DNA of 64,000 nucleotides, taken from an uncultured Acidobacteriota bacterium. Lineage in GTDB: Bacteria > Acidobacteriota > Terriglobia > Terriglobales > Acidobacteriaceae. Both the position numbers and the translations under genes were made by a program. Positions 21,528 to 64,000 of this stretch are shown in pieces. The stretch is from assembly GCA_963761465.1 (NCBI GenBank), contig CAVXGX010000001.1, positions 868,083-932,082 of the forward strand. The letters are read 5' to 3'. The notes beneath the pieces are model-generated. The model did no database searches, was not told the origin of the DNA, and saw only the letters and a list, made by a program, of their open reading frames with translations. Each line of letters opens with the position of its first letter. Positions within the stretch are counted from its first letter, which is position 1.

Positions 21528-21549
21528 AAGTGTTCCTGCAGGAACACTT
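21528..21549. promoter_or_regulatory. parS-like 22-bp palindrome, copy 1 (perfect)
   Basis: aagtgttcctgcaggaacactt. Confidence 0.55.
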
Positions 21550-21646
21550 CTCGCAGTTTGCAACATCAAACCGGTTAGGCAGGGCTGCGGGTTCGGGCTA
21601 AATTATGTGGCAATTATAGATGCGCGATCATCTCTGATAAGTCTCA

Positions 21647-21668
21647 CAGTGTTCCTTCAGGAACACTT
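21647..21668. promoter_or_regulatory. parS-like palindrome, copy 2 (centre TTCA)
   Basis: cagtgttccttcaggaacactt. Confidence 0.55.
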
Positions 21669-21766
21669 CCTCTTTCCTAGCATCTAGGCGCCGCATCCCC
21701 GGATTAGGAATTCTCAACCAAGCCCAGACCGAGCAAGCGATCCGCACTCCCAGGCCAGCGCCCGCC

Positions 21767-21788
21767 GAGTGTTCCCGCAGGAACACTT
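21767..21788. promoter_or_regulatory. parS-like palindrome, copy 3 (centre CGCA)
   Basis: gagtgttcccgcaggaacactt. Confidence 0.55.
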
Positions 21789-21905
21789 TGTGGCTTTTCA
21801 ATCGGACGATGGCCTGAAGTCTCCCGGAGTCAACCTCACAGCTCAACCACCACGTCAGCCCAAGGCGAACTGCCTATAAGCCCTTAGGACAACTAGGAGC
21901 CAGCC

Positions 21906-21927
21906 AAGTGTTCCTGCGGGAACACTT
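21906..21927. promoter_or_regulatory. parS-like palindrome, copy 4 (centre TGCG)
   Basis: aagtgttcctgcgggaacactt. Confidence 0.55.
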
Positions 21928-21980
21928 CTCCGAAATTGGCATGCAGCTGAACCAGCCTTGCCGGTCACGCTAAACCGCAA

Positions 21981-22002
21981 AAGTGTTCCTGCAGGAACAC
22001 TT
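21981..22002. promoter_or_regulatory. parS-like palindrome, copy 5 (perfect)
   Basis: aagtgttcctgcaggaacactt, 108 nt upstream of the parA ATG. Confidence 0.55.
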
Positions 22003-22109
22003 GACTGGTTTTGCACAACAATTCACCAGCGTGCACAGCAGATCGTCATTGATTTGAAGTGCGTTGCGGATTATGCTGCGCTGTAGCTCTGCTTCTCCAA
22101 GACAATCTC

Positions 22110-22952
22110 ATGGGACGTGTCATCGCTGTTGCCAACCAGAAGGGCGGCGTGGGTAAGACCACGACCGCCATCAACCTGGCCGCGTCGTTCGCGGCTGCGG
22201 AAGTGAACACGCTGCTGGTCGACTGCGATCCGCAGTCGAATGCCACTAGCGGCCTCGGTTTCGCTAAGGATCCTGACCGGATCAGCTCCTACCACCTGCT
22301 GATGGGAGCGGCCACGGCTGAGGAGGCGCTGCTCACCACTGAACTCGAGCAGCTGTGGCTGATTCCTGCGCACAAGAACCTGATCGGCGCGAACATTGAG
22401 CTGGTTGATGCAGAGGGTCGCGAGTTCCGCATGCGCGAGGCGCTGGCCCAGGTACGCGATCGCTTTCAGTTCATCGTGCTGGACTGTCCGCCAGCGCTTG
22501 ACCTGCTGACGCTGAACTCACTCGTCGCGGCTGACGCGGTGCTCATCCCGATGCAGGGCGAGTACTTTGCGCTTGAAGGTGTGAGCGAGTTACTCGACAC
22601 GATCGAGCGCATTCGCGCGGCGTTGAATCCTGGGTTGGAGATTGAGGGCGTGGTGCTGACCATGTTCGACGAGCGCACCAACCTGGCGCAGCAGGTGATG
22701 ACTGAGCTCAAGAATTATTTTGGGGAGAAGCTGTGCCGCACCACGATCCCGCGGAACATACGGTTGGCTGAGGCGCCCAGCCATGGGATGGCGGCGCTGG
22801 TATACGATCCGCGGTCGAAGGGTGCGGAGAGTTATATCAGGCTGGCGAAGGAGATTATTGAGCGGCAAGTATCAGTGGCCAGTGATCAGGGGAGAGGGGT
22901 CAGTGAGCCCACTTCGGAGCCGGACTCAGGGGAGATGGACAAGACGGCTTAG
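22110..22952 (+). CDS. parA: Chromosome partitioning ATPase ParA (Soj)
   Basis: MGRVIAVANQKGGVGKTTTAINLAA deviant Walker A, DCDPQ, LDCPP. ATG at 22110. Confidence 0.95.
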   Translation: MGRVIAVANQKGGVGKTTTAINLAASFAAAEVNTLLVDCDPQSNATSGLGFAKDPDRISSYHLLMGAATAEEALLTTELEQLWLIPAHKNLIGANIELVDAEGREFRMREALAQVRDRFQFIVLDCPPALDLLTLNSLVAADAVLIPMQGEYFALEGVSELLDTIERIRAALNPGLEIEGVVLTMFDERTNLAQQVMTELKNYFGEKLCRTTIPRNIRLAEAPSHGMAALVYDPRSKGAESYIRLAKEIIERQVSVASDQGRGVSEPTSEPDSGEMDKTA

Positions 22953-48380: not shown

Positions 48381-50030
48381 TCAGATTGCAATCGGCAACG
48401 GCGAGTCCGGGATTTCGTGGGCCTCGGTGGGGCCGCGGCGCGAGCGGACTTCGGGGCGTTTGCGGAAGACGACTTTGACACCTTCGCGCCAGCGTTCGTC
48501 GATGCCGGCGAATTCCCATTCGATTTCGGGTGAGATGTAGCGGAGCAGCGTGTCGGTTGCGGGATGGATATGAAGCGCTGGAGCGACCAGGTAGAGCAAC
48601 GGTTTTTCCGGCGCCAACTCGCGATCAGGAAAATATCCGAAGCGGGGAAATTCTTCGCGACTGTGATGCCAGGCAACTCTTGACCAATAGTCGAGGCCTT
48701 GCAGCGGCAGGTGGATATCCTCGTCGGCTTTGAGTTCGAGGACGGCGAGACGGCCCTCGCGCGTGACGGTTAACACATCGAGCATGGCGCGGTCGGCGGC
48801 CGAGAATGCCGGGACTTGCGAGTAGAGCGCGTGCGACTCTCGCGATGACTCCTGCGATTCCTGCATTGGCGAGATCAGGCGCTCGTCGATGACACTGACG
48901 TCGGCCACGACCAGCGATTCGAGCCAGCGTTCGGGGCGCAGTCGGAAAAGCGGGTTCTGGCGCGGGCCGTAGGGATGGCGGGTGTCGCGCAGCGCGGTGA
49001 TTACCTCTAGGAATAACGGGAAGTTACGATCCTCCAGAACGCGCTCTTCGGCGCCGACTCCAAAAACAATTTCCTGTTTGCTGCGGAAAGTTGCGGCTTC
49101 GGCGCCCATGCGGGCGCGCGCGAATTCCAGGCCGCGCCAGCGGAAGGCGAGCTCGGCCGCGGACAGCACCGCGACTTCGCAGTTGGGCAGCAGCGAGGTG
49201 ATTCGGGCGATGGAGTCGGTGAAGCGTTCGCGGGCGGCGGACTCGTTAGGCGCGTGGACAAGGCGCGTGGTCACGTTGCCGCGGTCAGTGCAGTCGATCT
49301 CGATCAATGAGTCATCGCGTTCTTCGAGTTCGAAGAGGCGCCATTTGGCCGCGAACTGATTCAGGTTGGCCATGCGCTCGCGAACCAGTGCGGAGCATCC
49401 GTGGGGAACGAAGAGATGCAGCCCCTCAACCAGAAATTTTCCGTTGCAGGACTTGCGGCAGGCTTCGAGCCAGAGAATCGCGAAGGTCAGAGACGCATCG
49501 ATCGATGCCTGCGTTTCGGAAGCGTTGACCCCGAGCACGGCGAATGCAGACTGGCCGTGGCGCAGGAGTCCGCGGGCGTAGATGGGGCCGAAGGATTTTT
49601 CGAGGTCGACGGCGGTGGTGAGGCGAATTATCGAGTAGGCGGGAAAACGGCGTTCGAGGGCGCGGCGGAGTTTTTGTTCGTAACTGCTGCGGGCTAACTT
49701 CTTGGCGGTGGGCGAACGGCGGTCGCGCTCGCGGCAGATTTCTATTTTCGTGGGCCGCGACTGGCCGAGGCGCTGCACGAATAATTTCAGCGTGCCGTTT
49801 TTTACCTCGGCGTCAAGCACGCGGCGGACAGTGTTGCGCTCGGCCGACCAGAGATGCAGCAGGCATTTGTTGTACTCGCCGGAAATCGAATATTTGGACT
49901 GGGCCAGGTCGAAGGCTACGGCTCCGTTTTCGAGGACGATGGCGCCCGCGGCCTCGCTGAGAAAATCCTGCAGGGTGCGGGTTAGGGCGTCGGGGGTCAC
50001 GAGGGGGATTGTGCACATTGCGTGAGGCAA
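48381..50030 (-). CDS. Large conserved hypothetical protein with a PD-(D/E)XK-like C-terminal motif
   Basis: 549-aa clean ORF. The C-terminal region ...YSQVPAFSAADRAMLDVLTVTREGRLAVLELKADEDIHLPLQGLDYW resembles a restriction-endonuclease-fold D...E-x-K core. Confidence 0.65.
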   Translation of the reverse strand: MPHAMCTIPLVTPDALTRTLQDFLSEAAGAIVLENGAVAFDLAQSKYSISGEYNKCLLHLWSAERNTVRRVLDAEVKNGTLKLFVQRLGQSRPTKIEICRERDRRSPTAKKLARSSYEQKLRRALERRFPAYSIIRLTTAVDLEKSFGPIYARGLLRHGQSAFAVLGVNASETQASIDASLTFAILWLEACRKSCNGKFLVEGLHLFVPHGCSALVRERMANLNQFAAKWRLFELEERDDSLIEIDCTDRGNVTTRLVHAPNESAARERFTDSIARITSLLPNCEVAVLSAAELAFRWRGLEFARARMGAEAATFRSKQEIVFGVGAEERVLEDRNFPLFLEVITALRDTRHPYGPRQNPLFRLRPERWLESLVVADVSVIDERLISPMQESQESSRESHALYSQVPAFSAADRAMLDVLTVTREGRLAVLELKADEDIHLPLQGLDYWSRVAWHHSREEFPRFGYFPDRELAPEKPLLYLVAPALHIHPATDTLLRYISPEIEWEFAGIDERWREGVKVVFRKRPEVRSRRGPTEAHEIPDSPLPIAI

Positions 50031-50327
50031 AGTCTGTGACGAGTGACCACGGTTTTCGGCGAGGGCTGTGGAAGACTTTGGGGAGGCTGCGGAGCGGTTG
50101 GGGTGTGGGATAATAAAAGAAACCGGTCAGGGGATCGTTTTGGGCGTGATTCATCGCCCCTCAGGGGCTAGAGCCCTCAGTTTTTGGGCGCTAACGGCAG
50201 GGCTGAACCCGCGCCCTTCCCAAAACCTTTCGCGGCCCGGATAGAGGATCAGTTGCAGTAAGACCGGTCTTCTCGGAGTAGATTGCGGTCGAGTCGTGGG
50301 TTGGCGCGGCGGCATCTAAAGACTATC

Positions 50328-51809
50328 GTGGACAAACAAACTTCGGACAGACATCTCTCGGATCGCCAACGATTTTTCTTCGAAAACTACGGCTTGAGCG
50401 AGCATGATCTCGAGCGCTATCTCGGGGCCGCGCTTTCAGCGGGCGGCGATTATGCCGACTTGTATTTCGAATATCTGTCGTCGACCTCCCTGATGGTCGA
50501 TGAGTCGATGGTGAAGTCGGCGTCGCAGGGAATTTCGGTGGGCTGCGGCGTGCGCGTGGTTTCCGGTGAGCGCACGGGCTATGCCTATACCGACGATCTT
50601 TCGTCGGATCGGATTCTGCACGCGGCGCGAACGGCGGCGTTGATTGCGAGCGCTCCGGCGAAAACGACCGTCGCGGGATTTCAGAAGGCTGCCGCGCGCA
50701 GTTTGTATCCGGTGACGCTGCCGTCGGTGGATGCGGAGATCAGCGCCAAGGTTGAGCTGGTGATGCGCGCCGATAAAGCGGCGCGGGCGTATGACGTGCG
50801 GATTCAGGAAGTGCGCGCGAGTTACTCGGATGAGCTGCGGAATATTTTAGTGGTGGGATCGGATGGAACGTTTGCGGAGGATTCGCAACCGCTGGCGCGG
50901 ATGAATGTGTCGTGCATCGCCAAGACCGAGGGGAATTCGGCGCGCGGGACATCTGGTGGTGGGGGACGCGTGGCGCTGGACTTTTTCTTTGGCGAGAAGA
51001 CCCCGGAATTTTTTGCCAGGGAATCGGCGCGGCAGGCGATTTTGCAACTCGATGCGCGCGAGGCTCCGGCGGGAGAGATGGAAGTTGTGCTGGGGCCGGG
51101 ATGGCCGGGAGTGCTGCTGCACGAGGCTGTGGGACACGGGCTGGAAGCGGACTTCAACCGCAAGAAAACTTCCGCGTTTGCCGGGCTGATTGGCAAGCGT
51201 GTCGCGAGCGAAAAGTGCACGGTCGTCGATAATGGGACCATGCCGTGGCGGCGTGGGTCGCTCAATGTCGACGATGAAGGCGGGTCGACGCAGGAAACCG
51301 TGCTAATTGAAAATGGGATTCTGAAGGGATATCTGAGCGATAAGTTGTCGTCGCGGCTGATGGGGATTGCGAGCACGGGCAACGGCCGGCGCGAGAGCTA
51401 TGAGCACATTCCGATGCCGCGTATGACCAACACTTACATGCTGGCGGGGCAGGACAATCCGGAAGATATTATTCGCTCGGTGAAGCATGGAATTTATGCG
51501 GTGAATTTTGGCGGCGGCCAGGTCGACATCACGAACGGCAAGTTCGTATTCTCGGCCAGCGAAGCCTACATGATTGAGGACGGACAGATCACCGCGCCGA
51601 TCAAGGGCGCAACGCTGATCGGAAACGGTCCGGACGTGCTGACGCGGGTTTCAATGGTGGGGAACGATTTGAAACTCGACGAAGGCGTGGGCACTTGCGG
51701 CAAGGATGGGCAGGCCGTGCCGGTGGGCGTGGGAATTCCGACGCTGAAGATCGATCGGCTGACGGTGGGCGGGACGGCGCGGAAGGATCCGGGCGGGTTC
51801 ATGCAGTAG
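50328..51809 (+). CDS. tldD: Metalloprotease TldD
   Basis: GDYADLYFEY...GVGVRVVSGERTGYAYTDD...HEAVGHGLEADF. GTG at 50328 fits the length of TldD N-termini; the track start at 50283 is the alternative. Confidence 0.9.
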   Translation: MDKQTSDRHLSDRQRFFFENYGLSEHDLERYLGAALSAGGDYADLYFEYLSSTSLMVDESMVKSASQGISVGCGVRVVSGERTGYAYTDDLSSDRILHAARTAALIASAPAKTTVAGFQKAAARSLYPVTLPSVDAEISAKVELVMRADKAARAYDVRIQEVRASYSDELRNILVVGSDGTFAEDSQPLARMNVSCIAKTEGNSARGTSGGGGRVALDFFFGEKTPEFFARESARQAILQLDAREAPAGEMEVVLGPGWPGVLLHEAVGHGLEADFNRKKTSAFAGLIGKRVASEKCTVVDNGTMPWRRGSLNVDDEGGSTQETVLIENGILKGYLSDKLSSRLMGIASTGNGRRESYEHIPMPRMTNTYMLAGQDNPEDIIRSVKHGIYAVNFGGGQVDITNGKFVFSASEAYMIEDGQITAPIKGATLIGNGPDVLTRVSMVGNDLKLDEGVGTCGKDGQAVPVGVGIPTLKIDRLTVGGTARKDPGGFMQ

Positions 51810-51863
51810 AGACCTGATGGCCACGGATTTTGCGCGGATCTTCACCGATGGTGCAAGACCGTG

Positions 51864-52259
51864 CTAAAGCAGCCGCGCCGCTACCCCCTGCGCCTTGAGC
51901 ATTTCCACCGCCCTCTTATCGAACGAAACAAACGTCTCCGCTCCCAGCCATCGCCCCTCATAGGCGATCACGCCATCGGCGAAATCGCCGCCGGCATCCA
52001 ACATGGCCAAGCCCGCATCCACCACTGGCCTGTTCGTTTCCACATTGTCTGCTGCCAGCAATGTACGAATCGCTCTGCTCATATCGGACGACTTAAAGCC
52101 ATAGACGCTGCGCAGCACCCACACAAACTCGCACAAGGAAGGGACGGCGATCGCCACCATCTTGGCGCGTCCCATCAGTCGGATCGCGGCCTCGGTCTGT
52201 TCAGGTTCGTCGCGCACCGCCGCTCGCACCAGGACATTCGTGTCCACCGCGATCTTCAC
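51864..52259 (-). CDS. vapC: PIN-domain toxin VapC
   Basis: MKIAVDTNVLVRA... plus later acidic residues. 131 aa. 4-nt overlap with the upstream antitoxin gene. Confidence 0.82.
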   Translation of the reverse strand: MKIAVDTNVLVRAAVRDEPEQTEAAIRLMGRAKMVAIAVPSLCEFVWVLRSVYGFKSSDMSRAIRTLLAADNVETNRPVVDAGLAMLDAGGDFADGVIAYEGRWLGAETFVSFDKRAVEMLKAQGVAARLL

Positions 52260-52537
52260 TCTTTGCTCGTCGCTTTCGAGTCCGCCTGAGTCAAGCCAGC
52301 CCAGCCGCGCGCCGCCGCCTCATTCATCTCTTCAATGGTTGCGATTTTCTTCGTCTTGCCGGCGAGCACGCCAAAGAAGTCCTGTATGTTTCCGGTCGGC
52401 TTGGCCGCGCGGATCATCCCCCGGCCGTCGGGAAGCAAGTCGAGCTCAATCTTTTCTCCAGGCTTAATGCCCAGGTGTTCCAACACCTTTTTTCGAAAGG
52501 TTACTTGTCCCCTCGTGGTTACAGTAAGTGTGGCCAT
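52256..52537 (-). CDS. vapB: AbrB/MazE/SpoVT-type antitoxin (VapB)
   Basis: MATLTVTTRGQVTFRKKVLEHLGIKPGEKIELDLLPDG matches the SpoVT/AbrB swapped-hairpin pattern. Confidence 0.8.
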   Translation of the reverse strand: MATLTVTTRGQVTFRKKVLEHLGIKPGEKIELDLLPDGRGMIRAAKPTGNIQDFFGVLAGKTKKIATIEEMNEAAARGWAGLTQADSKATSKE

Positions 52538-52690
52538 CCTATGGTTCCTCTACAAATCCATTGTAATGCAAAATAGCATTATTTGCACTGGATTTCTTTC
52601 GAGCACTTTCGAGCACGTCCCTTGCGTCTCCCTTGCTTAAGGTTCCGGCCAAACAGGACAATCACCCACATTTGTTGGGATAATGAATGT

Positions 52691-54079
52691 ATGTCTTCAG
52701 TACAAGCCGAAACCGGTAACCCAAAACTCGCAACCGACCTCCGCGAAATCGCCCAGGATATCGTCCGCCGCGCCATGGCTGGTGGGGCAACCGCGGCCGA
52801 ATGCGTTGTGCGCGAGGGGGATGAATTCTCTACGCTCGTTCGCCTCGGCCAAGTTGAAACGCTGAAAGAGTCTGGCTCGAAATCGATTGGGGTGCGGGTG
52901 TTTTTTGGGCAGCGGGCGGCGAGTACTTACTCGAGCGATTTTTCGCGCGCGGGGCTTGACCGGATGGTGACGTCGGCGCTGACTCTGGCGAAGATTACTT
53001 CGGAAGATCCGTTTGGCGGAATTCCGGAGGCATCGCAGTTGGGCTCGATCGCGGGTGATCTTGATTTGTATTATGACGACGTCTATTCGCTCGCCGGGGC
53101 GGACCGCATCGACTACGCCCGGCGCGCGGAGAAAGCGGCGCTGGATTTCGATCCGCGCATCAAGAACTCGGAAGGCGGATCGTTTGACGCGGCCACGGGG
53201 CACAAGGTGCTGGCGAATTCTCATGGGTTCGTGGGCGAGTATCGGCGGTCGTATTGTTCCGTCGCGGCGGTGCCGATCGCGCAGACTGAAGCGGGCGCGA
53301 TGCAGCGCGATTACTGGTACTCGGTGGCCCGCACGCTTTCGAAGCTGGATGCGCCGGAGAAAGTCGGCAGGATTGCCGCGGAACGTACATTGCGGCGGTT
53401 GGGTGCGCGCAAGGCCAAGACCGCGCAGGTGCCGATTATTTTCGATCCCATGGTTTCGACTTCGATCCTCGAACATATTTTCGAGGGGATCAACGGAGAT
53501 TCGGTTTATCGCGGCGCGTCTTTTCTGGCCGGCAAGCTGGGGCAGAAAATTGCCGGCGACAACGTCAACATCATCGACGATGGCACGATTCCCGGCGGGT
53601 TCGGAACGAGTCCGTTCGACGGCGAGGGCGTGCCCACGCGGCGCACCGTGGTGATTGAGAACGGCGTGCTGAAATCTTATTTACTGAACACCTACACCGC
53701 GAAGAAACTGAAGATGCAGACGACCGGGAACGCCTCGCGCGGGCTCGCCGGAACGCCGGGGATTGGGCCGGGAAATTATTTTCTGCAGGCGGGCACCAAG
53801 ACGCCGAAGGAATTGATTGGCGGAATCAAGAACGGCCTATACGTGACAGAGTTTCTCGGCAGCGGGGCGAACCTGGTGACCGGAGATTATTCGCGCGGGG
53901 CTTCGGGGTTGTGGATTTCCGGTGGAGAGTTCGCGTATCCGGTGGAAGAGATTACGGTGGCGGGAAATTTGAAGGAATTGTTTTTCAATATTTCGGAGAT
54001 CGCCAATGATCTGGAGTTTCGCGGGTCGGTGGCGGCGCCGACGATTCGCGTGGACGGCCTGACGGTGGGCGGGGAATAG
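52691..54079 (+). CDS. pmbA: Metalloprotease PmbA/TldE
   Basis: ATG at 52691. Typical PmbA blocks (...GVRVFFGQRAASTYSSD..., ...GNASRG..., GLYVTEF.G.G.N..TGDYSRGA.G.WI..GE...PV.E.T.AGN). Confidence 0.9.
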   Translation: MSSVQAETGNPKLATDLREIAQDIVRRAMAGGATAAECVVREGDEFSTLVRLGQVETLKESGSKSIGVRVFFGQRAASTYSSDFSRAGLDRMVTSALTLAKITSEDPFGGIPEASQLGSIAGDLDLYYDDVYSLAGADRIDYARRAEKAALDFDPRIKNSEGGSFDAATGHKVLANSHGFVGEYRRSYCSVAAVPIAQTEAGAMQRDYWYSVARTLSKLDAPEKVGRIAAERTLRRLGARKAKTAQVPIIFDPMVSTSILEHIFEGINGDSVYRGASFLAGKLGQKIAGDNVNIIDDGTIPGGFGTSPFDGEGVPTRRTVVIENGVLKSYLLNTYTAKKLKMQTTGNASRGLAGTPGIGPGNYFLQAGTKTPKELIGGIKNGLYVTEFLGSGANLVTGDYSRGASGLWISGGEFAYPVEEITVAGNLKELFFNISEIANDLEFRGSVAAPTIRVDGLTVGGE

Positions 54080-54087
54080 ATTCGGCT

Positions 54088-54115
54088 CATGTGGGGCGGA
54101 CAGCTCCTGTCCGCC
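54088..54115 (+). repeat. Type-D hairpin repeat
   Basis: catgtggggcggacagctcctgtccgcc. Confidence 0.75.
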
Positions 54116-54158
54116 AGCCTTTGCGCCGGCACTGCACTTCGCCAAGAGAGCAACCCGA

Positions 54159-54527
54159 ATGAAATTCGCCAAAGTAGTTTTCTGGATTGCCGCGGTCTGG
54201 GGCATCCTGATTCTTACGCCCGCTATATTTCATGTTCGATGTGATTGGCCGGCAGGATCCTCCGGCGATTACGCATCCCGGCTTTTATTACGGCTTCGCC
54301 AGCGTTGGGCTGGCCTGGCAGGTCGCGTTCATCGTGATTGCGCGCGACCCGGTGCGCTTTCGTGCGATGATGATTCCGGCGATGCTGGAGAAGTTCGGGT
54401 ACGGGGCTACCTTCCTGGTGTCTGTATCTGCAGCACCGGCTGCATGCGTCGGACCTGGTGTTTGGCGGAGTGGATGTGCTGTTCGGCGTGCTGTTTCTGC
54501 TTGCCTTCTTTCGAATTTCCGGCTTAA
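54159..54527 (+). pseudogene. Small membrane protein gene broken by at least two frameshifts
   Basis: A continuous protein-like sequence is spread over three frames: MKFAKVVFWIAAVWGILILTPAIF (frame of 54159), then MFDVIGRQDPPAITHPGFYYGFASVGLAWQVAFIVIARDPVRFRAMMIPAMLEKFGYGATFLV (frame of 54232), then LYLQHRLHASDLVFGGVDVLFGVLFLLAFF (frame of 54458). The 3' end is uncertain. Confidence 0.6.
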
Positions 54528-54678
54528 ACATTTCCTTGTATTTTCAGGTTCTGGCTCACATCGCACAGCTGCGAAAGCTCTTAACCGCTGAGTCGCTGAG
54601 TAAGGCCGCCGAGAAGTGTGGGCTGCAACCTGCACGTTTCATACGGAGGAGCTTACATAATCTCATACATCTTGCGGT

Positions 54679-55893
54679 TTGCGAATCTGGCCGGACTTGA
54701 GGCGAAATCTCGATGCGCTTTTCCGCGGGCCGCGGCGCAAAAGCGGTCCCTCCGCAGCAAAGCTCGATTCGCCCGAGACGATTCTGCTCAAGGATTATCG
54801 ACCGAAGTCGATCTACAAAATTCCCGTCACGGAGATTGCCAAGGCGAAGTTTCCGATCATCGACATGCATTCGCATCCTTACGCGAAGACTGCGGGGGCG
54901 ATCGACGAGTGGGTCGGCAACATGGATGAAGTGGGAGTCGAGAAGACGATCATCTCTGACCATGGCGACTGGCGCGGAGTTTGACGAGATCAACGGAAGT
55001 ATGCGAAGCATCCCGAGCGGTTTGAGATGTGGTGCGGACTCGATTTCTCGGGCCACGACAAGCCGGGATTCGGTCCGGCGGCGGTGAAAGAGTTGGAACG
55101 CTGTCAGGCAAGCCGGGGCGCGCGGCGTGGGCGAGATTCACGACAAGGGCAAGGGATTGAGATCCGGAAAGTCGAGATGCCGCGGGCATGCATCCGGACG
55201 ATGCGCGCATGGATTCGCTGTGGGGAAAATGCGGCGAGCTCGGGATGCCGGTCAGCCTGCACGTGGCCGATCCGATCTGGATGTACCAGAAGATGGACCG
55301 GTACAACGACGGCCTGATGAACGCGTACGAGTGGCGGCTGGACAATCAGCCGGATATTGTGGAGCTGTCGGGGATGGTGGATATTTTCGAGCGCACGCTG
55401 GCGCGGCACCGGAACACGACATTCGTCGCGTGCCACTTCATGAATCTGGATTACGATCTGGCGCGGCTGGGCGAGGTGCTGGAGCGGAATCCAAATTTGT
55501 ATGCGGATATTTCCGCGCGGTATGCGGAGACAGCGCCGATTCCGCGCTTCGCAGCGCAGTTTTATGCCAAGCATGCGGACCGGCTGGTTTACGGCACCGA
55601 CATGGGAGTCGATCAAAGCGATGTACCGGGTTACGTTTCGCATTCTGGAATCGCTGGATGAGCATTTTTATGAGAATGAGCAGTTTGGATATCACTGGAG
55701 CTTGAATGGGTTCGGGTTGAGTGATGCGGTTCTGCGGCAGGTTTATCGCGAGAATGCGGCAAGACTGCTGGCGGCGCGAAAGCCTAACCCTAGAGAGAAC
55801 CCATCAACCACAAAGGACTCGAAGGATCACGAAGGAATTCGCTGGATGGATTCCTTCGTGCACCTTCGTGTCCTTCGTGGTTTAAGCTCTTGA
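54679..55893 (+). pseudogene. Amidohydrolase-family gene broken by about five frameshifts
   Basis: Homologous-looking sequence hops between frames: ...FPIIDMHSHPYAKT...VEKTII / LTMATGAEFDEI / KYAKHPERFEMWCGLDFSGHDKPGFGPAAVKELERC / GEIHDKGKGLRSGK / MHPDDARMDSLWGKCGELGMPVSLHVADP...LVYGTDMG / IKAMYRVTFRILESLDEHFYE...VYRENAARLL. The 5' end is uncertain. Confidence 0.65.
55806..55882. repeat. Long imperfect palindrome (33-nt arms, 11-nt loop)
   Basis: Left arm aaccacaaaggactcgaaggatcacgaaggaat; right arm attccttcgtgcaccttcgtgtccttcgtggtt. Confidence 0.7.
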
Positions 55894-55952
55894 ATCCGCA
55901 CCCGATCAGCGAGAAATCGACAATCAAAATCAACAGCCTACAATTCTCTGAC

Positions 55953-56456
55953 ATGGGCAGCTTGGGACAGCCAACACCGGTCGCAGAGGAACGCGACTCC
56001 AGCCGTTTGATTATTGGCATCGCGATGGCGGTGCTGATCGGCGGCGCGCTGCTGGCGGCGTTTCTGCTGCGCGAGCCGCCTCGGGTTGCGAAGACCGCGT
56101 CACCTTATATTGCCAGCCTGAAACTTTCTGATTTCAAGATGAGCGCGGCCGAGAATTTTATTGGCGCCACGGTCAGCTACATCGACGGCAGCATTACGAA
56201 TAGTGGCGGCAAAACAGTGACGCATGCCGTGGTCGAAGTCGTGTTCAAGGACGAGATGGGGCAGGTCGCTCAGCAGGAGGAGGTGCCGTTACAGGTGATC
56301 CGGACGAACGGGCCTTATCCTGAGCCGGTCGACCTCAGCGTTTCTCCCTTGGCGCCGGGGCAGACGCAACCGTTCCGGCTGACCTTCGACCATATTTCGG
56401 CGCAGTGGAACCGGCAGTATCCGGAGATTCGGGTTACGGATGTGACGGTGAAGTAG
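55953..56456 (+). CDS. Membrane-anchored hypothetical protein (DUF2393-like?)
   Basis: Start at MGSLGQ (55953). A single TM (LIIGIAMAVLIGGALLAAFLL) followed by a beta-rich ectodomain. Confidence 0.58.
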   Translation: MGSLGQPTPVAEERDSSRLIIGIAMAVLIGGALLAAFLLREPPRVAKTASPYIASLKLSDFKMSAAENFIGATVSYIDGSITNSGGKTVTHAVVEVVFKDEMGQVAQQEEVPLQVIRTNGPYPEPVDLSVSPLAPGQTQPFRLTFDHISAQWNRQYPEIRVTDVTVK

Positions 56457-56490
56457 TGCGCTGCGCGGCAGTTTTGATCGACGGCAATAT

Positions 56491-57027
56491 TCAGTTCAAA
56501 GGGATCGGTATTTGCACGGCCGGGTATTTTATCGCGGCGACCGCCTTCGGAATGTCGGTCGGACCGTAGTTCACCCCAATCTTGCTGCCATCGCTGTATT
56601 CGATGACGACCCACGATTCCGGCAGGTCTCTACAGGAACGACAACCTCCGGCCTGTGGCACAGCCAGTAGCGCCCTAGCATCGATCGAGCGCAGCAGATT
56701 CTTCCAATCTTGTTTCGTGATTGCGATTCTGGTTTTCTTGTTCGGGAGCTTTTTCGGATTTGAAGAATTCGCTCCTTCCCAAACAAGAACCGACGGTTCG
56801 ACTGTGGTCGTGGTCGTGTGGTAGAAGAGACCGCCGCCGCACATACCGCAGGAGTCTCCGGTTCGCACGCGAACCACATGCGCAGTCGCCGCCGGGCCGG
56901 CCGGCGGAACTGGAGTTTGAGCGAGGGCGCTGGTGACCATGCCTGCCGTGACCAGAGTCGCGCCGATTAGACTCGCGAAAAATGATTTCCGATGTTCCGA
57001 GCGCACTGCAACCTCTCCAAGCGTCAT
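56491..57027 (-). CDS. Secreted hypothetical protein
   Basis: Start at MTLGEVAV (57027). Signal peptide ...LIGATLVTAGMVTSALAQ. Cys pairs CGMCGG and GGCRSC. Confidence 0.52.
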   Translation of the reverse strand: MTLGEVAVRSEHRKSFFASLIGATLVTAGMVTSALAQTPVPPAGPAATAHVVRVRTGDSCGMCGGGLFYHTTTTTVEPSVLVWEGANSSNPKKLPNKKTRIAITKQDWKNLLRSIDARALLAVPQAGGCRSCRDLPESWVVIEYSDGSKIGVNYGPTDIPKAVAAIKYPAVQIPIPLN

Positions 57028-57224
57028 GAGTATAGAACGCGCGTGCCTGGATTTCTTGCGCCTTGGAGAACTGCACTCAGTGACGCATGTCTGCGGGCTT
57101 GAGATCACAAATTGTGATCTCAAGTTTTGAATCCTGAAGCCTGTCTTCGGAATTTGCCATCCAGGCCGTAGAACAATCCTGTAATTGAACTGATCCAGCG
57201 AAAACCGTCCGCTACAATGGGCTC

Positions 57225-58271
57225 GTGACGGGGAGCAAGCCATTTCGCTTGACGGAGTCAGTGAAAGCTGCGGGTTGAGCGAGCAAGCTGAGTCCGGCGG
57301 CGCTGGACACGGTGCTTGGGAAATTAGCCCGGCAACACGACCCGAATGTGCTGGTCGGCTTCGATCATGCCGACGACGCCGGAGTGTATCTGATCGCGCC
57401 CGAGCAGGCGCTGGTACAGACGGTGGATTTCTTCACGCCGGTTGTCGACGATCCCTACACCTTCGGGCAGATTGCCGCGACAAATTCTTTGAGCGACGTG
57501 TATGCCATGGGCGGGAAGCCGCTGACGGCTTTGGCTCTGGTTTGTTTTCCAGAGAAAGCGGATCTGGCGATTCTCGAGCGCATTCTCGCCGGCGGATTGT
57601 CGAAGATGATTGAAGCCGGATGCACGGTAATTGGCGGGCACAGCATTCGGGATGAGGAAACAAAGTTTGGATATTCGGTGACGGGAGTTGTGCATCCCAA
57701 GAAAATTCTGGCGAACCAGGGAGCGAAGCCGGGAGACGCGTTGTTGTTCACCAAGGCGCTGGGCACGGGCGTGATTTCAACCGCGATCAAGAAAGGCAAA
57801 GCCGAGCCGGCGTGGATTGAAGCAGCGGTGCGGTCGATGACGACGCTCAACAAACGGGCAGCGGAAGTAATTGCTGCTGGAGAGTTTCGCGTGAATGCAA
57901 TGACCGACGTCACTGGGTTCGGGATGATCGGGCATGCACGCGAGATGGTGCTGGCATCAGATGTGTCGATCGGAATTTTCGCGGAGAAGATTCCTCTGAT
58001 TGATGGCGCGATCAACTGTGTGCGGGCGGGGTATGTTCCGGCGGGGCTCAAGAACAATCGCGAGTTTGCGGAGTGCCTGGTGGAGTATGACGATGGAGTC
58101 GCGGAGGATGTGCGGGCGCTCCTGTTTGATCCGCAGACTGCGGGAGGGTTGCTGATCTCGACGCCCGAGGCGGAGCGGCTGACGAGGGCTTTAGCGGAAG
58201 CGGGCGTTGCGGCGGTGGTGATCGGGGAAGTGCTGAAGAACTCAAAGCCCCGCATTAGAGTGTCACCGTGA
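57225..58271 (+). CDS. selD: Selenide, water dikinase SelD; predicted selenoprotein with in-frame UGA at 57276-57278
   Basis: Extending the track ORF (57312..) upstream in frame gives V(M)TGSKPFRLTESVKAAG-U-ASKLSPAALDTVLGKLA..., matching the SelD N-terminal G(C/U)xxK loop. The rest is SelD-like (DDAGVY, DFFTP.VDDPY.FG.IAA.N..SD..AMGG.P, TDVTGFG..GH). GTG start at 57225. Confidence 0.88.
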
Positions 58272-58278
58272 TCGCGTG

Positions 58279-58318
58279 GTTCCCACGTCTCGCAAGGAGG
58301 CGAGACATGGGGCATCCC
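58279..58318 (-). repeat. Type-B hairpin repeat
   Basis: gttcccacgtctcgcaaggaggcgagacatggggcatccc. Confidence 0.8.
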
Positions 58319-58327
58319 ATTTTTTCG

Positions 58328-58876
58328 TTACGGTTTTGTGTTGATCAGTTCCCAGATTCGCGCCAGATGGTGGTCGTCGTGTTCGGCTACGAAGTAGAGA
58401 TGGTCGACCAGGCGCATGGGAGTTTTCAGGCGCGGGTGGGGAATCGAGCGCGAGAAGAGAGACGCATTCATCTCTGCAGCTCGCTGCAACAGTTTCTCTC
58501 GCGCGCCGCGGAAATCTTTCAGAATTGTTTTCAGCGGTTGCGCGTTGTGGCTCGCTTCGGTGGTTTTTCGATTCTGCAGATCAGTGGAGGTGAGTTGGGT
58601 GCTGGCTGCCACGTAATCGTTCACTCGCGCCAGCCAGAGGGGTTCGAGATCCAGCAGGTGGCCGGCGTGTTCCTGGGCAGACCATTTTTGTTCCGGCTTC
58701 ATGGTCAGGATTTCTTGAGAATGGCCGCGAAGCACGTCCTCGAGTCTAGCCGGAGTGCCGCGCAGGCGGGCCAGCAGGTTGGGGTAAAGCTCGACGGGAA
58801 AAGAAAACTCGAACTTGCGTTCAAACCAGATGGGCACCTGACTCATAGATTCCGCCCTGTCGACCGAGGACTCCAA
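58328..58876 (-). CDS. DinB-family protein
   Basis: ...WSAQEHAGHLLDLE...HLYFVAEHDDHHLARI matches the His-triad pattern of DinB_2. Alternative start MSQVPIW at 58846. Confidence 0.72.
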   Translation of the reverse strand: MESSVDRAESMSQVPIWFERKFEFSFPVELYPNLLARLRGTPARLEDVLRGHSQEILTMKPEQKWSAQEHAGHLLDLEPLWLARVNDYVAASTQLTSTDLQNRKTTEASHNAQPLKTILKDFRGAREKLLQRAAEMNASLFSRSIPHPRLKTPMRLVDHLYFVAEHDDHHLARIWELINTKP

Positions 58877-59002
58877 CGCAATACAAGATGCTCCAGCGGC
58901 GTGCTCGACTCAGGAATTTGTGTCATCGCGGGCGGGGGCTGGTGCATCTGTTAACTGTGCAGTCCGACTGTCATTTTTATTTCGTACTCGTGAGGAGCCA
59001 TT

Positions 59003-59993
<991 letters not shown>

Positions 59994-60207
59994 AATCGGC
60001 CATCCATCAAAATCTTGTCAATAGGCAGAAATTACACGATCGGGTTTAACTTCATGAAAGCAATCACAATATAAAGTCACCAACCATGTCCACTTTAACC
60101 CCTCCAATTTGATATTCTAGAAGTATAGAGACAATTTCTGGTCCAGAAGGCGAGCCCTACAGGTCGCGCCTTTTTTATTGGCCGCAGTGTCGGACACCCG
60201 GTGCCGG

Positions 60208-60256
60208 GTGCCCCATTTCTCGCGCGCACTTTGCGCGAGAAGTGGGGATTTTTTTT
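60208..60256 (+). repeat. Type-A hairpin repeat followed by T8
   Basis: gtgccccatttctcgcgcgcactttgcgcgagaagtggggatttttttt. Confidence 0.75.
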
Positions 60257-60296
60257 GGCGATCAATGGGACGAACCCAAGGGAAGAGCACACAGAG

Positions 60297-60791
60297 ATGC
60301 GCACAAACAACAGCAACAACCGCAATAACGACTGGATCCACTTCAAAACCTTCAAGCAGCGCGGCGAATGGGTCGAGCTGCAATTCATGGCCGAAGCCGC
60401 CAAGCACCGCTTTGCCATCAGCAAGCCCTGGGGAGAAACGCAATCCTACGACGTCGGCATAGAACACAGTTCGAACTTCCTTCGGGTGCAGGTCAAGTCC
60501 ACCGTCGTGAGGTCCGCTGCCGGATACCTCTGCCAGTTCAAGCCCAACCACCTGAAGAAGCGGGACTACTCCCTCAAAGAAATCGACGTCTTCGCCGCCT
60601 ACGTCATTCCGGAAGATGCCTGGTACCTGATCCCAGCGGTCTTACTGCTGGGCAAGCGCCGACGCACCATGGCCATGCTCTGCCCCGTAGTCCCCCCAAA
60701 AAAGAAAGCCTGCTACCGCTACGAATCCTACCGCGAAGCGTGGGATCTGCTCAGGAAGAGCCGGCTGGAATTGGGAAACTACGGATGCTGA
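60297..60791 (+). CDS. PD-(D/E)XK endonuclease-family protein (PDDEXK_5-like)
   Basis: ATG at 60297. RGEWVELQFMAEAAKHRFAISKPWGETQSYDVGIEHSSNFLRVQVKST...YSLKEIDVFAAYVIPEDAWYLIPA follows the G-E..E...A...G...P.G....YD....RVQVK....ID..A.Y....WY.IP pattern of that family as I remember it. Confidence 0.65.
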   Translation: MRTNNSNNRNNDWIHFKTFKQRGEWVELQFMAEAAKHRFAISKPWGETQSYDVGIEHSSNFLRVQVKSTVVRSAAGYLCQFKPNHLKKRDYSLKEIDVFAAYVIPEDAWYLIPAVLLLGKRRRTMAMLCPVVPPKKKACYRYESYREAWDLLRKSRLELGNYGC

Positions 60792-60942
60792 CGCCCGGCC
60801 CATTCTTAGCCCCAGAGGGGCGAAATATGTGCCTTGCATCCATCGAGGACACCGCAAAGCTGTCAATCTTCCATGAGAAAAATTAGCAGGCTCACAGCAA
60901 GGATCGAACCTCTTTAATTCACAGGGGTGTAACATTAAACTA

Positions 60943-60970
60943 TTGACACAGGAAGTCGGCAGACTATTAT
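60943..60970 (+). promoter_or_regulatory. Near-consensus sigma70-type promoter
   Basis: TTGACA (60943-60948), 16-nt spacer, TATTAT (60965-60970). Lies 23-47 nt upstream of the candidate starts of the small ORF. Confidence 0.45.
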
Positions 60971-60992
60971 CGAGCTTCGGAACTTCGAACAA

Positions 60993-61226
60993 ATGGCGAA
61001 AGAAGGTGATGGAACTATGGCAGATCGCAAACAATTCATCGGAGACATGAAAACTGACCCTGCACTGGTAAAAGCATTGGAAGCAGCGCGACAAAAACCT
61101 GTGACGGAGGACGACTTGCGCGAGCAGAGAATCAGCTTTGCATTCGGCAACGCCCCGGCCAACGCCAAAGCTATTACCAAAGACAGCGTACGGAAGGCGT
61201 CCGAGCACATTCGCCTGCTGCCGTAG
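60993..61226 (+). CDS. Small protein preceding Fic (possible antitoxin/regulator)
   Basis: 69-77 aa. An AAGGTG Shine-Dalgarno-like sequence precedes the second ATG (61017). Contains ...LREQRISFAFGNAP..., reminiscent of but not matching the VbhA-type (S/T)xxxE(G/N) helix. Confidence 0.5.
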   Translation: MAKEGDGTMADRKQFIGDMKTDPALVKALEAARQKPVTEDDLREQRISFAFGNAPANAKAITKDSVRKASEHIRLLP

Positions 61227-61242
61227 CTTTCTATTCAGCACG

Positions 61243-61280
61243 GGCCCGCAATATCCATTGCGGGCCAATTTCTTTTACAA
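61243..61280 (+). terminator. Hairpin plus T-rich tract between the small ORF and fic (terminator/attenuator candidate)
   Basis: ggcccgcaat-atcc-attgcgggcc (10-bp perfect stem, 4-nt loop) followed by aatttctttt. It ends 1 nt before the fic ATG. Confidence 0.45.
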
Positions 61281-61877
61281 ATGTCGGTACGCGAAAAAGA
61301 CAACCCCGCGCTATACACACGGATTCAGGAACAGAATCTTCTGAGGCAGTACGATCTCCTGTCCAATTGCATCGAAATTGGTTTAGAGAAAAAAATAGAA
61401 GCGTTCGACAAGTACACATTGTGGGCACTCAACTATGTTGCCGTTGCAAATATAGCTCAGTTTGGAGGGCGATACCGAGAAGACCCGATCTACGTGGGCA
61501 AGCACACCCCGCCCCACTTCAAAGAGGTTCCGAACCTAATGGATCGCTTCTTCTCGCTCATCCACGAAAATTGGACCATCGTAGATCATCCCACCTGGCT
61601 GGCTGCGTATGCCCTTTGGAGATTGAACTGGATTCACCCGTTTGTTGAAGGGAACGGTCGGACAGCCCGAGCAGCTTGCTACTACTTAATTTGTCTGAAG
61701 CAGGGGAAGCTTTTGCCCGGAAAGAAAATCGTTCCCGAGCGAATCCGAGAAAACCGACAGCCGTACTACGACGCACTAGAGGCTGCGGACCGAGCCTGGG
61801 ACGAAGGGAAGCTCGATGTATCGATGATGGCGAAGTACCTGGAAGAACTTCTCAAAGGGCAACTCACGGAGCCATAA
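61281..61877 (+). CDS. Fic-domain protein (canonical AMPylation-type active site)
   Basis: HPFVEGNGRTARA is a full match to the Fic motif HxFx(D/E)GNGRxxR. 198 aa. Confidence 0.9.
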   Translation: MSVREKDNPALYTRIQEQNLLRQYDLLSNCIEIGLEKKIEAFDKYTLWALNYVAVANIAQFGGRYREDPIYVGKHTPPHFKEVPNLMDRFFSLIHENWTIVDHPTWLAAYALWRLNWIHPFVEGNGRTARAACYYLICLKQGKLLPGKKIVPERIRENRQPYYDALEAADRAWDEGKLDVSMMAKYLEELLKGQLTEP

Positions 61878-61978
61878 ACTTTCTTTGTCGTCGGTCCCTT
61901 CCTCATTGCAAGGTGGTCAGCGATGCTACGCGGGTCTTGTCCATCGATGTTATTCTGCGGAACGTGTGTGAGCCAGAG

Positions 61979-62893
61979 ATGTCGAAACGAATCGATTTCG
62001 CGGGAAAACGTAGAAAGCAAGGGCGCTTGTTAAGCAAGGCTGTCGGCGAACTCAAAGCGGTGATAAAGACAGCAGCGCATCAAGGCAGAATTGATCTTCA
62101 GGCACGTTTAGACGAGTCGTTAGCTCGAAAATCAGTAGAGAAAGGGCTATTAGCCGAACGCCTGCAAGAGTCAGTGGTGCCTCTGTTTATCGGAGATCCC
62201 GCGGGGCAACCCGACAGAATTGGTTCTTGCGTCCTTGCGCAATTGGATTCAGACCTCTTTGCATTTACCGCAGCCCACGTCATACGCGGGGCTAACTCAG
62301 CAAGACTCTTTGCTCCTCCACACGGCCGGGGCGGAAAGTTGCTGCCGCTGCCGCAGTGCGCCGCCCACCTGAACGACGACCTCGATGTTGGCGTGCTGGC
62401 CTTACCGGCGAGCCAACTAGGCGCTTTTCAGCAGCGCATTTTTCTCGATGGCGGAGAAATCGATCAAGCAGATCGACCAGACGAACAAGGTCCTGAGCTG
62501 TTCTATTTTGTCCTCGGATATCCCGCATCAAGGACACAAGTGAAGTTATCCACTCCCGAGCGTCGAATTCATCAAAAGTCGTTTCACTTGTGTACTTACC
62601 CGGCGCATCCCGCCGAATACCTACAGGAGCGACTGTCACAGGCGGACAATATACTGCTCGACTTTGACCACAAGGAGATCGTATCTGGAGGGAAGCGGAC
62701 CAATCCGCCCAAACTCCAGGGTGTCAGCGGCGGAGGAATTTTTCGGATATCCAGGGGAACAAGGCGCGGCCCACTCATCGCGATCGCTACACAGAATCGA
62801 CGCGGGTCACGGCTGATCGCAGGCACGAGAATCAAGCACTTCCTGGCTATGGCTCGTGACCTGAAGACGATATCTCCGCCCCGAACGTCTTGA
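61979..62893 (+). CDS. Cytoplasmic trypsin-like (S1/Trypsin_2-type) serine protease
   Basis: ATG at 61979. Triad-like motifs in canonical order: FTAAHVI (His), DLDVGVLAL (Asp), LQGVSGGGIF (Ser). No N-terminal signal peptide (MSKRIDFAGKRRKQGRLLSK...). Confidence 0.68.
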   Translation: MSKRIDFAGKRRKQGRLLSKAVGELKAVIKTAAHQGRIDLQARLDESLARKSVEKGLLAERLQESVVPLFIGDPAGQPDRIGSCVLAQLDSDLFAFTAAHVIRGANSARLFAPPHGRGGKLLPLPQCAAHLNDDLDVGVLALPASQLGAFQQRIFLDGGEIDQADRPDEQGPELFYFVLGYPASRTQVKLSTPERRIHQKSFHLCTYPAHPAEYLQERLSQADNILLDFDHKEIVSGGKRTNPPKLQGVSGGGIFRISRGTRRGPLIAIATQNRRGSRLIAGTRIKHFLAMARDLKTISPPRTS

Positions 62894-62902
62894 ACCGTCC
62901 TC

Positions 62903-64000
62903 CTACTGAATCAGCGTCCCTCCGTTGCCGCCCTCTGGCGCTGCTTCCGGCGCCAGGACTACCGCCGCGGCTACGCGGTCGCCGGGTTCCATGTTCAGGA
63001 GTCTCACGCCCTGGGCGTTTCTGCCCGATTCGCGGATGGTGGTTGAGTCCATGCGGATGATTTTGCCGTAGTGGCTGATCAGCATGACTTCGCTGGTTTC
63101 GTCGACCTGGGCGATGGCGACGACTTTGCCGACGCGCTCCGTCGTCTTTAGATTGATCACGCCTTTGCCGCCGCGGTTAGTGAGGCGGTATTCGTCGGCT
63201 GCGGTGCGTTTGCCGAATCCGTTTTCGGTGACGGAGAGGATCAGGCTGCCTTTGACGGCGATGTCGATGGGCTCGGCATCGGTTTCGGATTTGCCCGGCG
63301 CCGAAGCGCCTGCGGCGTCCGTCGCTCCAGGAGTTTTCTCCGTGCCGGGCTTTGGCGTGGTGGCCATGCCGACTACGTAGTCTTTCTCTTCGAGGTCGAT
63401 GCCCCAGACGCCGTAGGCAGCGCGGCCCATGGGGCGGACGTGGCTCTCGTCGAAGCGCACGGCCATGCCTTCGTGGCTGGCGAGGAACACGATTTGATTG
63501 CCGTCAGTGATGCGGGCGGCGACCAGTTCGTCGCCTTCTTCAATGGCGATGGCGTTGATGCCGTTGGAGCGTACGTGTATGAATTCGCGCAGCTCGGATT
63601 TTTTCACCAGGCCTTTGCGCGTCGCGAAGAAGACGTATTTATTGGCTTCTTCGAGATTGCGCACCGCGAGCATGGTCTTGGTGGTTTCGCCGGGTTGCAG
63701 GCCGATCAGGTTGCCGACGTGTTTGCCTTTTCCGGCGGCGCTGACGTCGGGAATTTCGTAGACCTTGAGCCAGTAGACGCGGCCCTTGTTGGTGAAGATG
63801 AGAATGTAGGCGTGTGTGCTGGCGATGAAAAGATGCTCGACGAAATCTTCGTCGCGCGTCTTCATGCCGGTGCGGCCCGTGCCTCCGCGGCGCTGCATGC
63901 GGTAGGTGGAGATGGGCGTGCGCTTCATGTAGCCGGAGTGGCTGACGGTGACGGCAACCTGCTCGTCGGCGATGAGATCTTCGAGAACGATCTCGGCGGC
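62903..64000 (-). CDS. gyrA: DNA gyrase subunit A, C-terminal part (5' end beyond the window)
   Basis: The frame stays open to the window edge: ...VTVSHSGYMKRTPISTYRMQRRGGTGRTGMKTRDEDFV.... Repeated GyrA C-terminal beta-pinwheel blades. Contains a Gly/Ala/Pro-rich insertion (PKPGTEKTPGATDAAGASAPGKSETD). Confidence 0.95.
   Translation of the reverse strand, partial: AAEIVLEDLIADEQVAVTVSHSGYMKRTPISTYRMQRRGGTGRTGMKTRDEDFVEHLFIASTHAYILIFTNKGRVYWLKVYEIPDVSAAGKGKHVGNLIGLQPGETTKTMLAVRNLEEANKYVFFATRKGLVKKSELREFIHVRSNGINAIAIEEGDELVAARITDGNQIVFLASHEGMAVRFDESHVRPMGRAAYGVWGIDLEEKDYVVGMATTPKPGTEKTPGATDAAGASAPGKSETDAEPIDIAVKGSLILSVTENGFGKRTAADEYRLTNRGGKGVINLKTTERVGKVVAIAQVDETSEVMLISHYGKIIRMDSTTIRESGRNAQGVRLLNMEPGDRVAAAVVLAPEAAPEGGNGGTLIQ

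Follow-up and report, generated by a model that had tools for sequence, protein, structure and literature searches.

The interval between an aldo/keto reductase (AKR) gene and gyrA in the genome of an uncultured Acidobacteriota bacterium (assembly GCA_963761465.1, contig CAVXGX010000001.1) holds four genes, encoding a PD-(D/E)XK nuclease, a small protein, a Fic protein and a cytoplasmic trypsin-like protease. Their proximity raises the question of whether they form a single toxin or defence system, as a preliminary description of the locus had suggested, or independent elements sharing a site. We addressed this question in a stretch of 64,000 nucleotides (nt) of this contig, hereafter the window, and in the relatives of its genes. 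The results point strongly to three evolutionarily independent units in a shared slot, rather than to one system, and the conserved unit at the locus appears to be the small-protein-plus-Fic cassette only. The explanation as a whole, in which a variable slot carries three units and the cassette works as a class I-like Fic pair, is in our judgement probable. The four open reading frames (ORFs) that the preliminary description had placed on one strand are all present, and the block is organized as follows (aa, amino acids):

59994-62893: block between the AKR gene and gyrA, ~2.9 kb
60297..60791, + strand: Unit 1, a solo PD-(D/E)XK nuclease (PDDEXK_5, PF11645) of 164 aa; Pfam E-value 3.4e-15
60915..60924, + strand: conserved TAATyCACAG box that precedes the -35 hexamer by 18 nt; many unrelated Fic cassettes have it at this same offset
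60943..60970, + strand: cassette promoter TTGACA-N16-TATTAT, matching at 11 of 12 positions
61017..61226, + strand: Unit 2a, the 69-aa putative partner protein of Fic, directly upstream of Fic
61243..61266, + strand: G+C-rich intercistronic hairpin followed by a T-rich tail
61281..61877, + strand: Unit 2b, a Fic protein of 198 aa with the motif HPFVEGNGRTAR (H119, R127, R130); Pfam Fic E-value 6.5e-17
61979..62893, + strand: Unit 3, a solo, predicted cytoplasmic PA-clan (trypsin-fold) serine protease of 304 aa with an invariant triad

Protease loci were collected through a profile scan of one genome per GTDB species, which returned 21 loci, with flanking DNA of up to 10 kb on either side, and Fic loci through a metagenome scan with Fic (80 loci), to which one look-up added 6, for a total of 86. 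In none of these 21 protease loci did the flanking DNA contain Fic, the small ORF, the nuclease, gyrA or the AKR gene, and the protease itself was the only gene family to recur within 4 kb; the annotated protease loci lie between unrelated housekeeping genes. Conversely, neither the protease nor the nuclease was found at any of the 86 Fic loci, ~46 of which have at least 1.2 kb of downstream DNA. The nuclease has its own itinerary, with genes 70% identical at the aa level located 3-6 kb from gyrA in two relatives (L121 and L122) that have neither Fic nor protease there. It is because the protease loci lack the other block genes, because the Fic loci lack protease and nuclease, and because the nuclease stands alone near gyrA in L121 and L122, that the three units are regarded as independent.

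The preliminary description had proposed Fic and protease as a unit, to be given up if their homologues were never neighbours elsewhere. With no co-occurrence as neighbours in the GTDB protease genomes or in the metagenome Fic loci, this linkage was rejected; the nuclease travels separately. The same sequence as the window is present in two further assemblies (L022 and L023), and outside these the full arrangement recurs only in L123, which is 93.5% identical over 60290-63019; since L123 is a close relative, the shared arrangement counts as one evolutionary event. Fic and protease are thus apparently chance neighbours in one lineage. A candidate presence/absence polymorphism in L023 was discarded, as it corresponds to a 1-bp indel in the same sequence.

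The site that these units share varies among relatives. In L120, the closest relative keeping the flanks (gyrA 89%, and the AKR and SelD genes 81%, identical at the nt level), the gyrA-AKR interval holds an Lnb_N-domain gene and an 89-aa ORF in place of the whole block, and homology to the window ends at 59984 and restarts at 62902, exactly at the gyrA stop. Because L120 retains gyrA, AKR and SelD and has other genes between gyrA and AKR, the interval is a variable cargo slot. The earlier idea of an inserted block therefore holds insofar as the slot is variable, but the composition of the block does not support a recent insertion. The block is indeed more A/T-rich than its surroundings, as had been noted by eye (G+C 0.529 vs 0.586 for the whole window), and the minimum over 1-kb segments of the 64 kb (0.503; mean 0.585, standard deviation 0.021) falls inside it. 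Nonetheless, the G+C content of Fic lies below that of its flanks in 31 of 31 loci (by 8.7 points on average) and that of the protease in 19 of 19 (by 3.9 points), so low G+C is a trait of these families rather than evidence of recent insertion here; with Fic synonymous sites saturated as well, it was rejected as a mark of recent transfer. The G+C content at third codon positions is 0.54-0.61 for the small ORF, Fic and protease genes, and 0.79, a value native to the genome, for the nuclease gene. The sole other low-G+C patch of the window lies at 21001-22250 (1-kb G+C 0.52).

The small-ORF/Fic cassette presents a consistent architecture across loci. Immediately 5' of Fic, 84 of the 86 loci have the small ORF, and the remaining 2 have no upstream DNA, so the arrangement holds in every testable case (84/84). 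The gene 3' of Fic belongs to 38 families across 58 loci, and the cassette is found at many different chromosomal sites across the Acidobacteriota. The near-consensus promoter reported in the preliminary description was recovered, and in 34 of 58 distinct loci the small ORF is preceded, at a distance of 34-60 nt, by a promoter matching at least 10 of 12 positions, compared to ~0.7 expected from shuffles; the spacer is 16 nt long in 32 of those 34. A CGAACAAA box in the 5' leader (60986-60993) also recurs in many unrelated Fic cassettes; together with the TAATyCACAG box, it could constitute an operator or leader element. The small ORF, previously given as 69-77 aa, is real, and its start is most likely at 61017 (MADRK, 69 aa) and not at the alternative 60993 (77 aa), because the MADRK N-terminus is kept in relatives and AAGGTGA stands 7-8 nt upstream; a Shine-Dalgarno sequence is, like promoter and hairpin, conserved along with the pair. 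Furthermore, the spacer between the small ORF and Fic has a fold energy of -10 kcal/mol or lower in 38 of 64 distinct spacers (14.4 expected from shuffles), and compensatory changes were observed at 6 of 6 consensus pairs of the hairpin in a hand-picked subset of sequences.

Fic proteins of these cassettes are 82-96% identical, with a third-codon identity of only 41%. This combination indicates that Fic has probably been under long-standing, strong purifying selection, rather than having spread recently. The small-ORF/Fic pair is retained at ~40% identity in three further loci (L113-L115). In L113, a 39%-identical Fic (3210-3794) absent from the gene calls follows the small ORF, with a phage-type integrase 250 nt further on; in L115 (CP172862.1, a complete 4.08-Mb genome), the Fic at 3266-3869 is frameshifted and follows a 42%-identical small ORF. 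No fusion of the small protein to Fic was detected among 1.84 billion representatives, in which three long matches proved to be repeat-protein artefacts. A phage origin of the cassette was rejected, given that the phage databases yielded just a single IMG/VR contig and Fic genes of Gordonia phages that are distant relatives, with none close in INPHARED.

As had been proposed, the Fic protein carries a perfect motif and belongs to the Fic/Fido family (PF02661; 62.6 bits, cut-off 24), with HPFVEGNGRTAR conforming to HxFx(D/E)GN(G/K)RxxR. The HPFxEGNGRxxR active-site residues are conserved among its homologues, with H119, P120, E123, N125, G126 and R127 invariant and R130 conserved in at least 90% of 26 sequences. 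The protein also matches phrog_23170 over its full length (1.7e-50). Its closest solved relative, in sequence (1.7e-14) as well as in fold (28% identity), is FICD: in a Foldseek search with a model of moderate quality (predicted local distance difference test, pLDDT, 71), FICD structures ranked on top (probability 1.0, template modelling (TM) score 0.57-0.60 over 182 columns) and VbhT ranked only 41st. Between G62 and H119, Fic and FICD align without gaps.

A distance of 129 residues separates the inhibitory Glu234 of FICD from His363, which follows it (PMC6826200). Because the position equivalent to Glu234 maps ~10 residues before residue 1 of the window Fic, this protein lacks an N-terminal inhibitory helix, and the [S/T]xxxE[G/N] helix found in the same chain in class II and III Fic proteins was not detected in it. 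Two candidate motifs were considered and rejected: the conserved S28-NCI-E32-I lacks the G/N and, by collinearity with FICD, sits in a helix equivalent to FICD residues 253-280, and S92-LIH-E96-N97 lies in a core helix. At the C-terminus, Glu188 and Glu189 are not conserved.

The small-protein family comprises 134 clusters at 50% identity and shares an invariant QRxSFx[FY]GN segment. In an alignment of the window protein and 130 representatives at 50% identity, none of the 131 sequences presents a Glu at the fifth position of SF[AV][FY]GN, which is occupied by Gly instead. The protein matches no Pfam, NCBIfam, PADLOC or PHROG family. VbhA (PF18495), which the preliminary description had put forward for comparison, and Fic_N were matched neither by the small protein nor by any of 51 relatives, even at E-values up to 10 in the case of VbhA. 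Comparison with EcFicA, using a sequence that fits the S24, R25 and E28 numbering in PMC5033356, yielded an hhalign probability of 0.1%. The small-protein profile had no significant match to the FICD N-terminus, where the inhibitory helix is located, and a virtual fusion of small protein and Fic searched against PDB gave an alignment that stops short of the small protein. With nothing detectable in any of these comparisons, the small protein was rejected as a homologue of VbhA, Fic_N, EcFicA or the FICD N-terminus. As a separate observation, the N-terminal half of the small-protein profile weakly matches the two repeats of Ltp, a lipoprotein of phage TP-J34 (4eqq; E 0.0018, 'eelr.Q.vSF'), probably by chance.

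These features place the cassette close to class I Fic pairs in layout. In class I, the antitoxin supplies an inhibitory helix with the motif [S/T]xxxE[G/N] (PMC5033356). Like VbhT/VbhA and FicT/FicA (PMC5033356, PMC3667792), the cassette has a small ORF immediately upstream on the same strand, a Fic protein of ~200 aa that has the canonical AMP-transfer motif and lacks a built-in inhibitory helix, a promoter of its own and a mobile, variable location. It departs from them in that the partner presents SFx[FY]GN in the place of [S/T]xxxE[G/N], without the glutamate and without detectable homology to VbhA or EcFicA, and in that the Fic core is nearer to FICD than to VbhT. The class I layout recognized in the preliminary description is thus correct as to gene position and does not extend to the inhibitory motif. 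The Fic motif, and a similar flap region (GGRYR / AGRFR), are shared with FICD/HYPE and other class II proteins, which differ in that their inhibitory helix is part of the Fic chain and precedes the core, with TPR domains in addition in FICD; the window Fic consists of the 198-aa core alone, its partner being a separate protein.

Under the explanation that we favour, Unit 2 would move as a block made up of a sigma-70 promoter, the 69-aa protein, the hairpin and the 198-aa Fic with its canonical AMP-transfer motif. Small protein and Fic would be made from one transcript starting at the 60943-60970 promoter, the hairpin would bias output towards the small protein, and the latter would bind Fic and hold it in check, with free Fic AMPylating a cellular target. 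A class I Fic toxin-antitoxin-like working of the pair is what we consider most likely, with the proviso that the mechanism of control would have to differ from that of VbhA/FicA, since Gly takes the place of the inhibitory Glu in the partner. Confidence in the individual steps is graded. We lean towards the small protein being a physical partner and regulator of Fic; that this regulation takes the form of toxin-antitoxin-like inhibition is a more tentative proposal, somewhat short of an even chance. A trans-acting counterpart of the inhibitory helix from which the glutamate has been naturally lost is unlikely. This last idea derives from the resemblance of SFx[FY]GN followed by ITKDSVR in the small protein to TVAIEGN followed by LTLSEIR in FICD; hhalign does lay ITKDSVR on LTLSEIR, but with a probability of 0.1%. 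FicT toxins modify GyrB (PMC13327609); the proximity of the cassette to gyrA is not conserved.

Several observations weigh against this explanation. Fic is about as conserved as the C-terminal domain of GyrA (81-92% vs 77-93% identity in the top matches), which would fit a housekeeping regulator. No representative of the small-protein family has a Glu in the segment, and none of VbhA, Fic_N, EcFicA and the FICD helix is a detectable homologue, so that the small protein may act elsewhere than at the Fic active site. Finally, the Fic and protease genes share a strand, no terminator is predicted in the 101 nt that separate them, and their co-transcription in this lineage is conceivable.

The first two of these points are at the core of the alternative that survives best, namely that small protein and Fic are a conserved physiological regulator, an AMPylase with an adaptor, chaperone or specificity subunit, performing a housekeeping function in Terriglobia. 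We regard this as a serious rival, if a good deal less probable than not: the identity of Fic proteins in spite of saturated synonymous sites, their GyrA-like conservation and a partner devoid of the inhibitory Glu are all in line with it, and E. coli FicTA is likewise vertically inherited and suspected of a specific physiological role (PMC5033356). The cassette nevertheless displays accessory-like traits, since it occurs at many chromosomal sites with its own promoter and always below its flanks in G+C, one distant member adjoins an integrase and the copy in one complete genome is frameshifted.

Slightly less probable, and in our view unlikely, is that the interval constitutes a small defence island, with an independent SoFic-like abortive-infection Fic, a stand-alone protease effector and a nuclease. 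PADLOC, which the preliminary description had suggested running, does return matches to SoFic (4.5e-16) and PDC-S04 (5e-13) for Fic, HEase ('homing endonuclease'; 1.4e-6) for the nuclease and LmuA (2.4e-4) for the protease, but these cover catalytic cores or partial profiles only: the Fic matches are confined to the catalytic core, and the LmuA match to positions 16-161 of 425, in the N-terminal part. In favour of this reading, the content of the slot differs among relatives, a PHROG family matches Fic over its full length, and a SoFic defence with a small antitoxin has been described (PMC12249575). SoFic and PDC-S04 resemble the cassette in pairing a Fic-domain protein with an adjacent gene for a small protein, which in SoFic is neutralising (PMC12249575). 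However, SoFic is ~360 aa long with extra domains, of which only core positions 137-245 of 361 match the window Fic, and its antitoxin gene, AS1, lies downstream and not upstream; against the full-length NCBIfam SoFic model, the window Fic scores 22 bits, with a cut-off of 550. No known defence genes stand beside protease or Fic in the loci inspected, and phage relatives amount to one in IMG/VR and none close in INPHARED.

A single toxin or defence system that comprises small ORF, Fic and protease, and perhaps also the nuclease, and in which the protease might for instance cleave the small protein or Fic, is highly improbable. The shared strand of all genes, the promoter ahead of the small ORF, the lack of a predicted terminator between Fic and protease and the gene order kept in L123 are compatible with it, and protease-activated effectors are known in anti-phage systems (PMC12799240). 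It runs against the complete lack of overlap between the 21 protease loci and the 86 Fic loci, against the many other neighbours of each gene and against the close relationship of the sole case in which the arrangement is shared. An assembly chimera, which single-base indel signs in the window (the frameshift in the AKR gene and one indel relative to L023) might have evoked, has a negligible probability, as the independent assemblies L022, L023 and L123 span the Fic-protease-gyrA or nuclease-small-Fic-protease-gyrA junctions.

Considered on its own, the protease of Unit 3 has a predicted N-terminal helical hairpin (~residues 7-65) and no signal peptide. Its earlier assignment as trypsin-like is upheld by the triad H100 (TAAHV), D136 (DLDVG) and S250 (GVSGGG), invariant in 27 homologues, but not by the Trypsin_2 profile (PF13365), which it matches weakly and below the cut-off (E 0.0088; 17.2 bits, cut-off 27.6); one homologue (P0073) has a precomputed PF13365 match. 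In the predicted model, which is of low confidence (pLDDT 56.5) and in which the C-terminal barrel is poorly modelled, the top Foldseek matches are all PA-clan proteins at TM ~0.3, including HtrA1, hepatitis A virus (HAV) 3C and DegS. The family comprises 385 homologue clusters, and all 21 genome loci recovered are from Acidobacteriota; it is an uncharacterised, probably acidobacterial family without a Pfam assignment that passes the threshold. Four of the 21 genomes (L016, L017, L018 and L021) have interrupted protease homologues, which are either pseudogenes or errors of metagenome-assembled genomes; in L017 the two halves (10001-10639 and 14056-14472) are ~3.4 kb apart, suggesting an insertion.

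Trypsin-fold proteases occur in trypsin-MBL (metallo-β-lactamase) pairs of Hachiman, AVAST and Lamassu, where the protease is fused to HamA, Avs1 or LmuA and an MBL-fold nuclease always precedes it (PMC12799240). The window protease is similarly cytoplasmic, without a signal peptide, and has the weak N-terminal LmuA match; it differs in being stand-alone, with a helical N-terminal hairpin, no MBL nuclease and no conserved neighbour in the 21 loci. A known nuclease-protease defence pair was also rejected for the nuclease and protease of the block, given that the described pairs combine MBL-fold nucleases with fused proteases (PMC12799240) and that the two genes do not co-occur.

The nuclease of Unit 1 is a member of PDDEXK_5, as predicted earlier (56.7 bits, cut-off 26.1), and matches phrog_5018 (8e-14). 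Among PDDEXK_5 solo endonucleases it is an ordinary member, with nothing unusual and no link to the other block genes. The remaining features of the interval and its right flank are the following:

60010..60174, + strand: non-coding stretch 5' of the nuclease gene that travels with it, recognized by sequence identity in L121 and L122
60211..60247, + strand: strong terminator-like hairpin (16-bp stem, then T8) just upstream of the nuclease gene
62903..64000, - strand: 3' part of gyrA, forming the right flank and running off the window; DNA_gyraseA_C 6.6e-68, frame open to the window end

The 165-nt non-coding stretch has a counterpart, 73-75% identical at the nt level, 5' of the PDDEXK_5 gene in both L121 and L122; it has no Rfam match, nor did an Rfam search of the block return any. 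The hairpin at 60211-60247 is single-copy within the window; a 44-nt copy, 95% identical, lies at an unrelated place in L120 (8165-8208), and it may be a dispersed terminator or a repetitive extragenic palindromic (REP)-like element. A 22-nt inverted repeat (60016-60037 / 60927-60948, 73% complementary) brackets the nuclease gene, its right arm overlapping the -35 region of the cassette, and may be due to chance.

The nearest named relatives of GyrA are from Candidatus Sulfotelmatobacter (Acidobacteriota). The protease stop (62891-62893) and the gyrA stop (62903-62905) are separated by 9 nt, as first described. On the left flank, the AKR gene (59003-59993) is split over two frames near 59347 by one extra C in the window (GGCGGCTCGGGCG vs GGCGGCT-GGGAG) relative to the intact 329-aa gene of L120, reflecting either a pseudogene or a single-base assembly error. 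Between SelD and AKR, the segment 58257-58990 contains a DinB_2 gene (58328-58876, - strand) that is missing from L120, where 123 nt separate SelD from AKR; this DinB-family gene is a second small variable insertion beside the block. In agreement with the preliminary description, none of the hallmarks of an integrase-borne genomic island was found at the block: there is no tRNA in 50000-64000 and no integrase-like ORF in 57000-64000, and direct repeats across the block edges are short, imperfect and unconvincing as att duplications.

Fic plus protease is thus not a conserved unit and is not to be pursued as one; the solo protease family, with its 385 clusters, is a second, smaller item of interest. 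What the locus does reveal is a compact, promoter-bearing Fic cassette present throughout soil Acidobacteriota, whose small partner belongs to an unannotated family. To our knowledge, no mode of Fic auto-inhibition or de-AMPylation has been described that does without the glutamate, and the cassette offers a naturally occurring case in which to ask how, or whether, a canonical Fic AMPylase is kept in check in its absence. Should the partner be a glutamate-less inhibitory helix, a very widespread acidobacterial Fic would be under a control mechanism not yet described, which could operate via aromatic or steric occlusion; alternatively, the partner could be a subunit that activates, or gives specificity to, an enzyme constitutively competent for AMPylation and unable to de-AMPylate.

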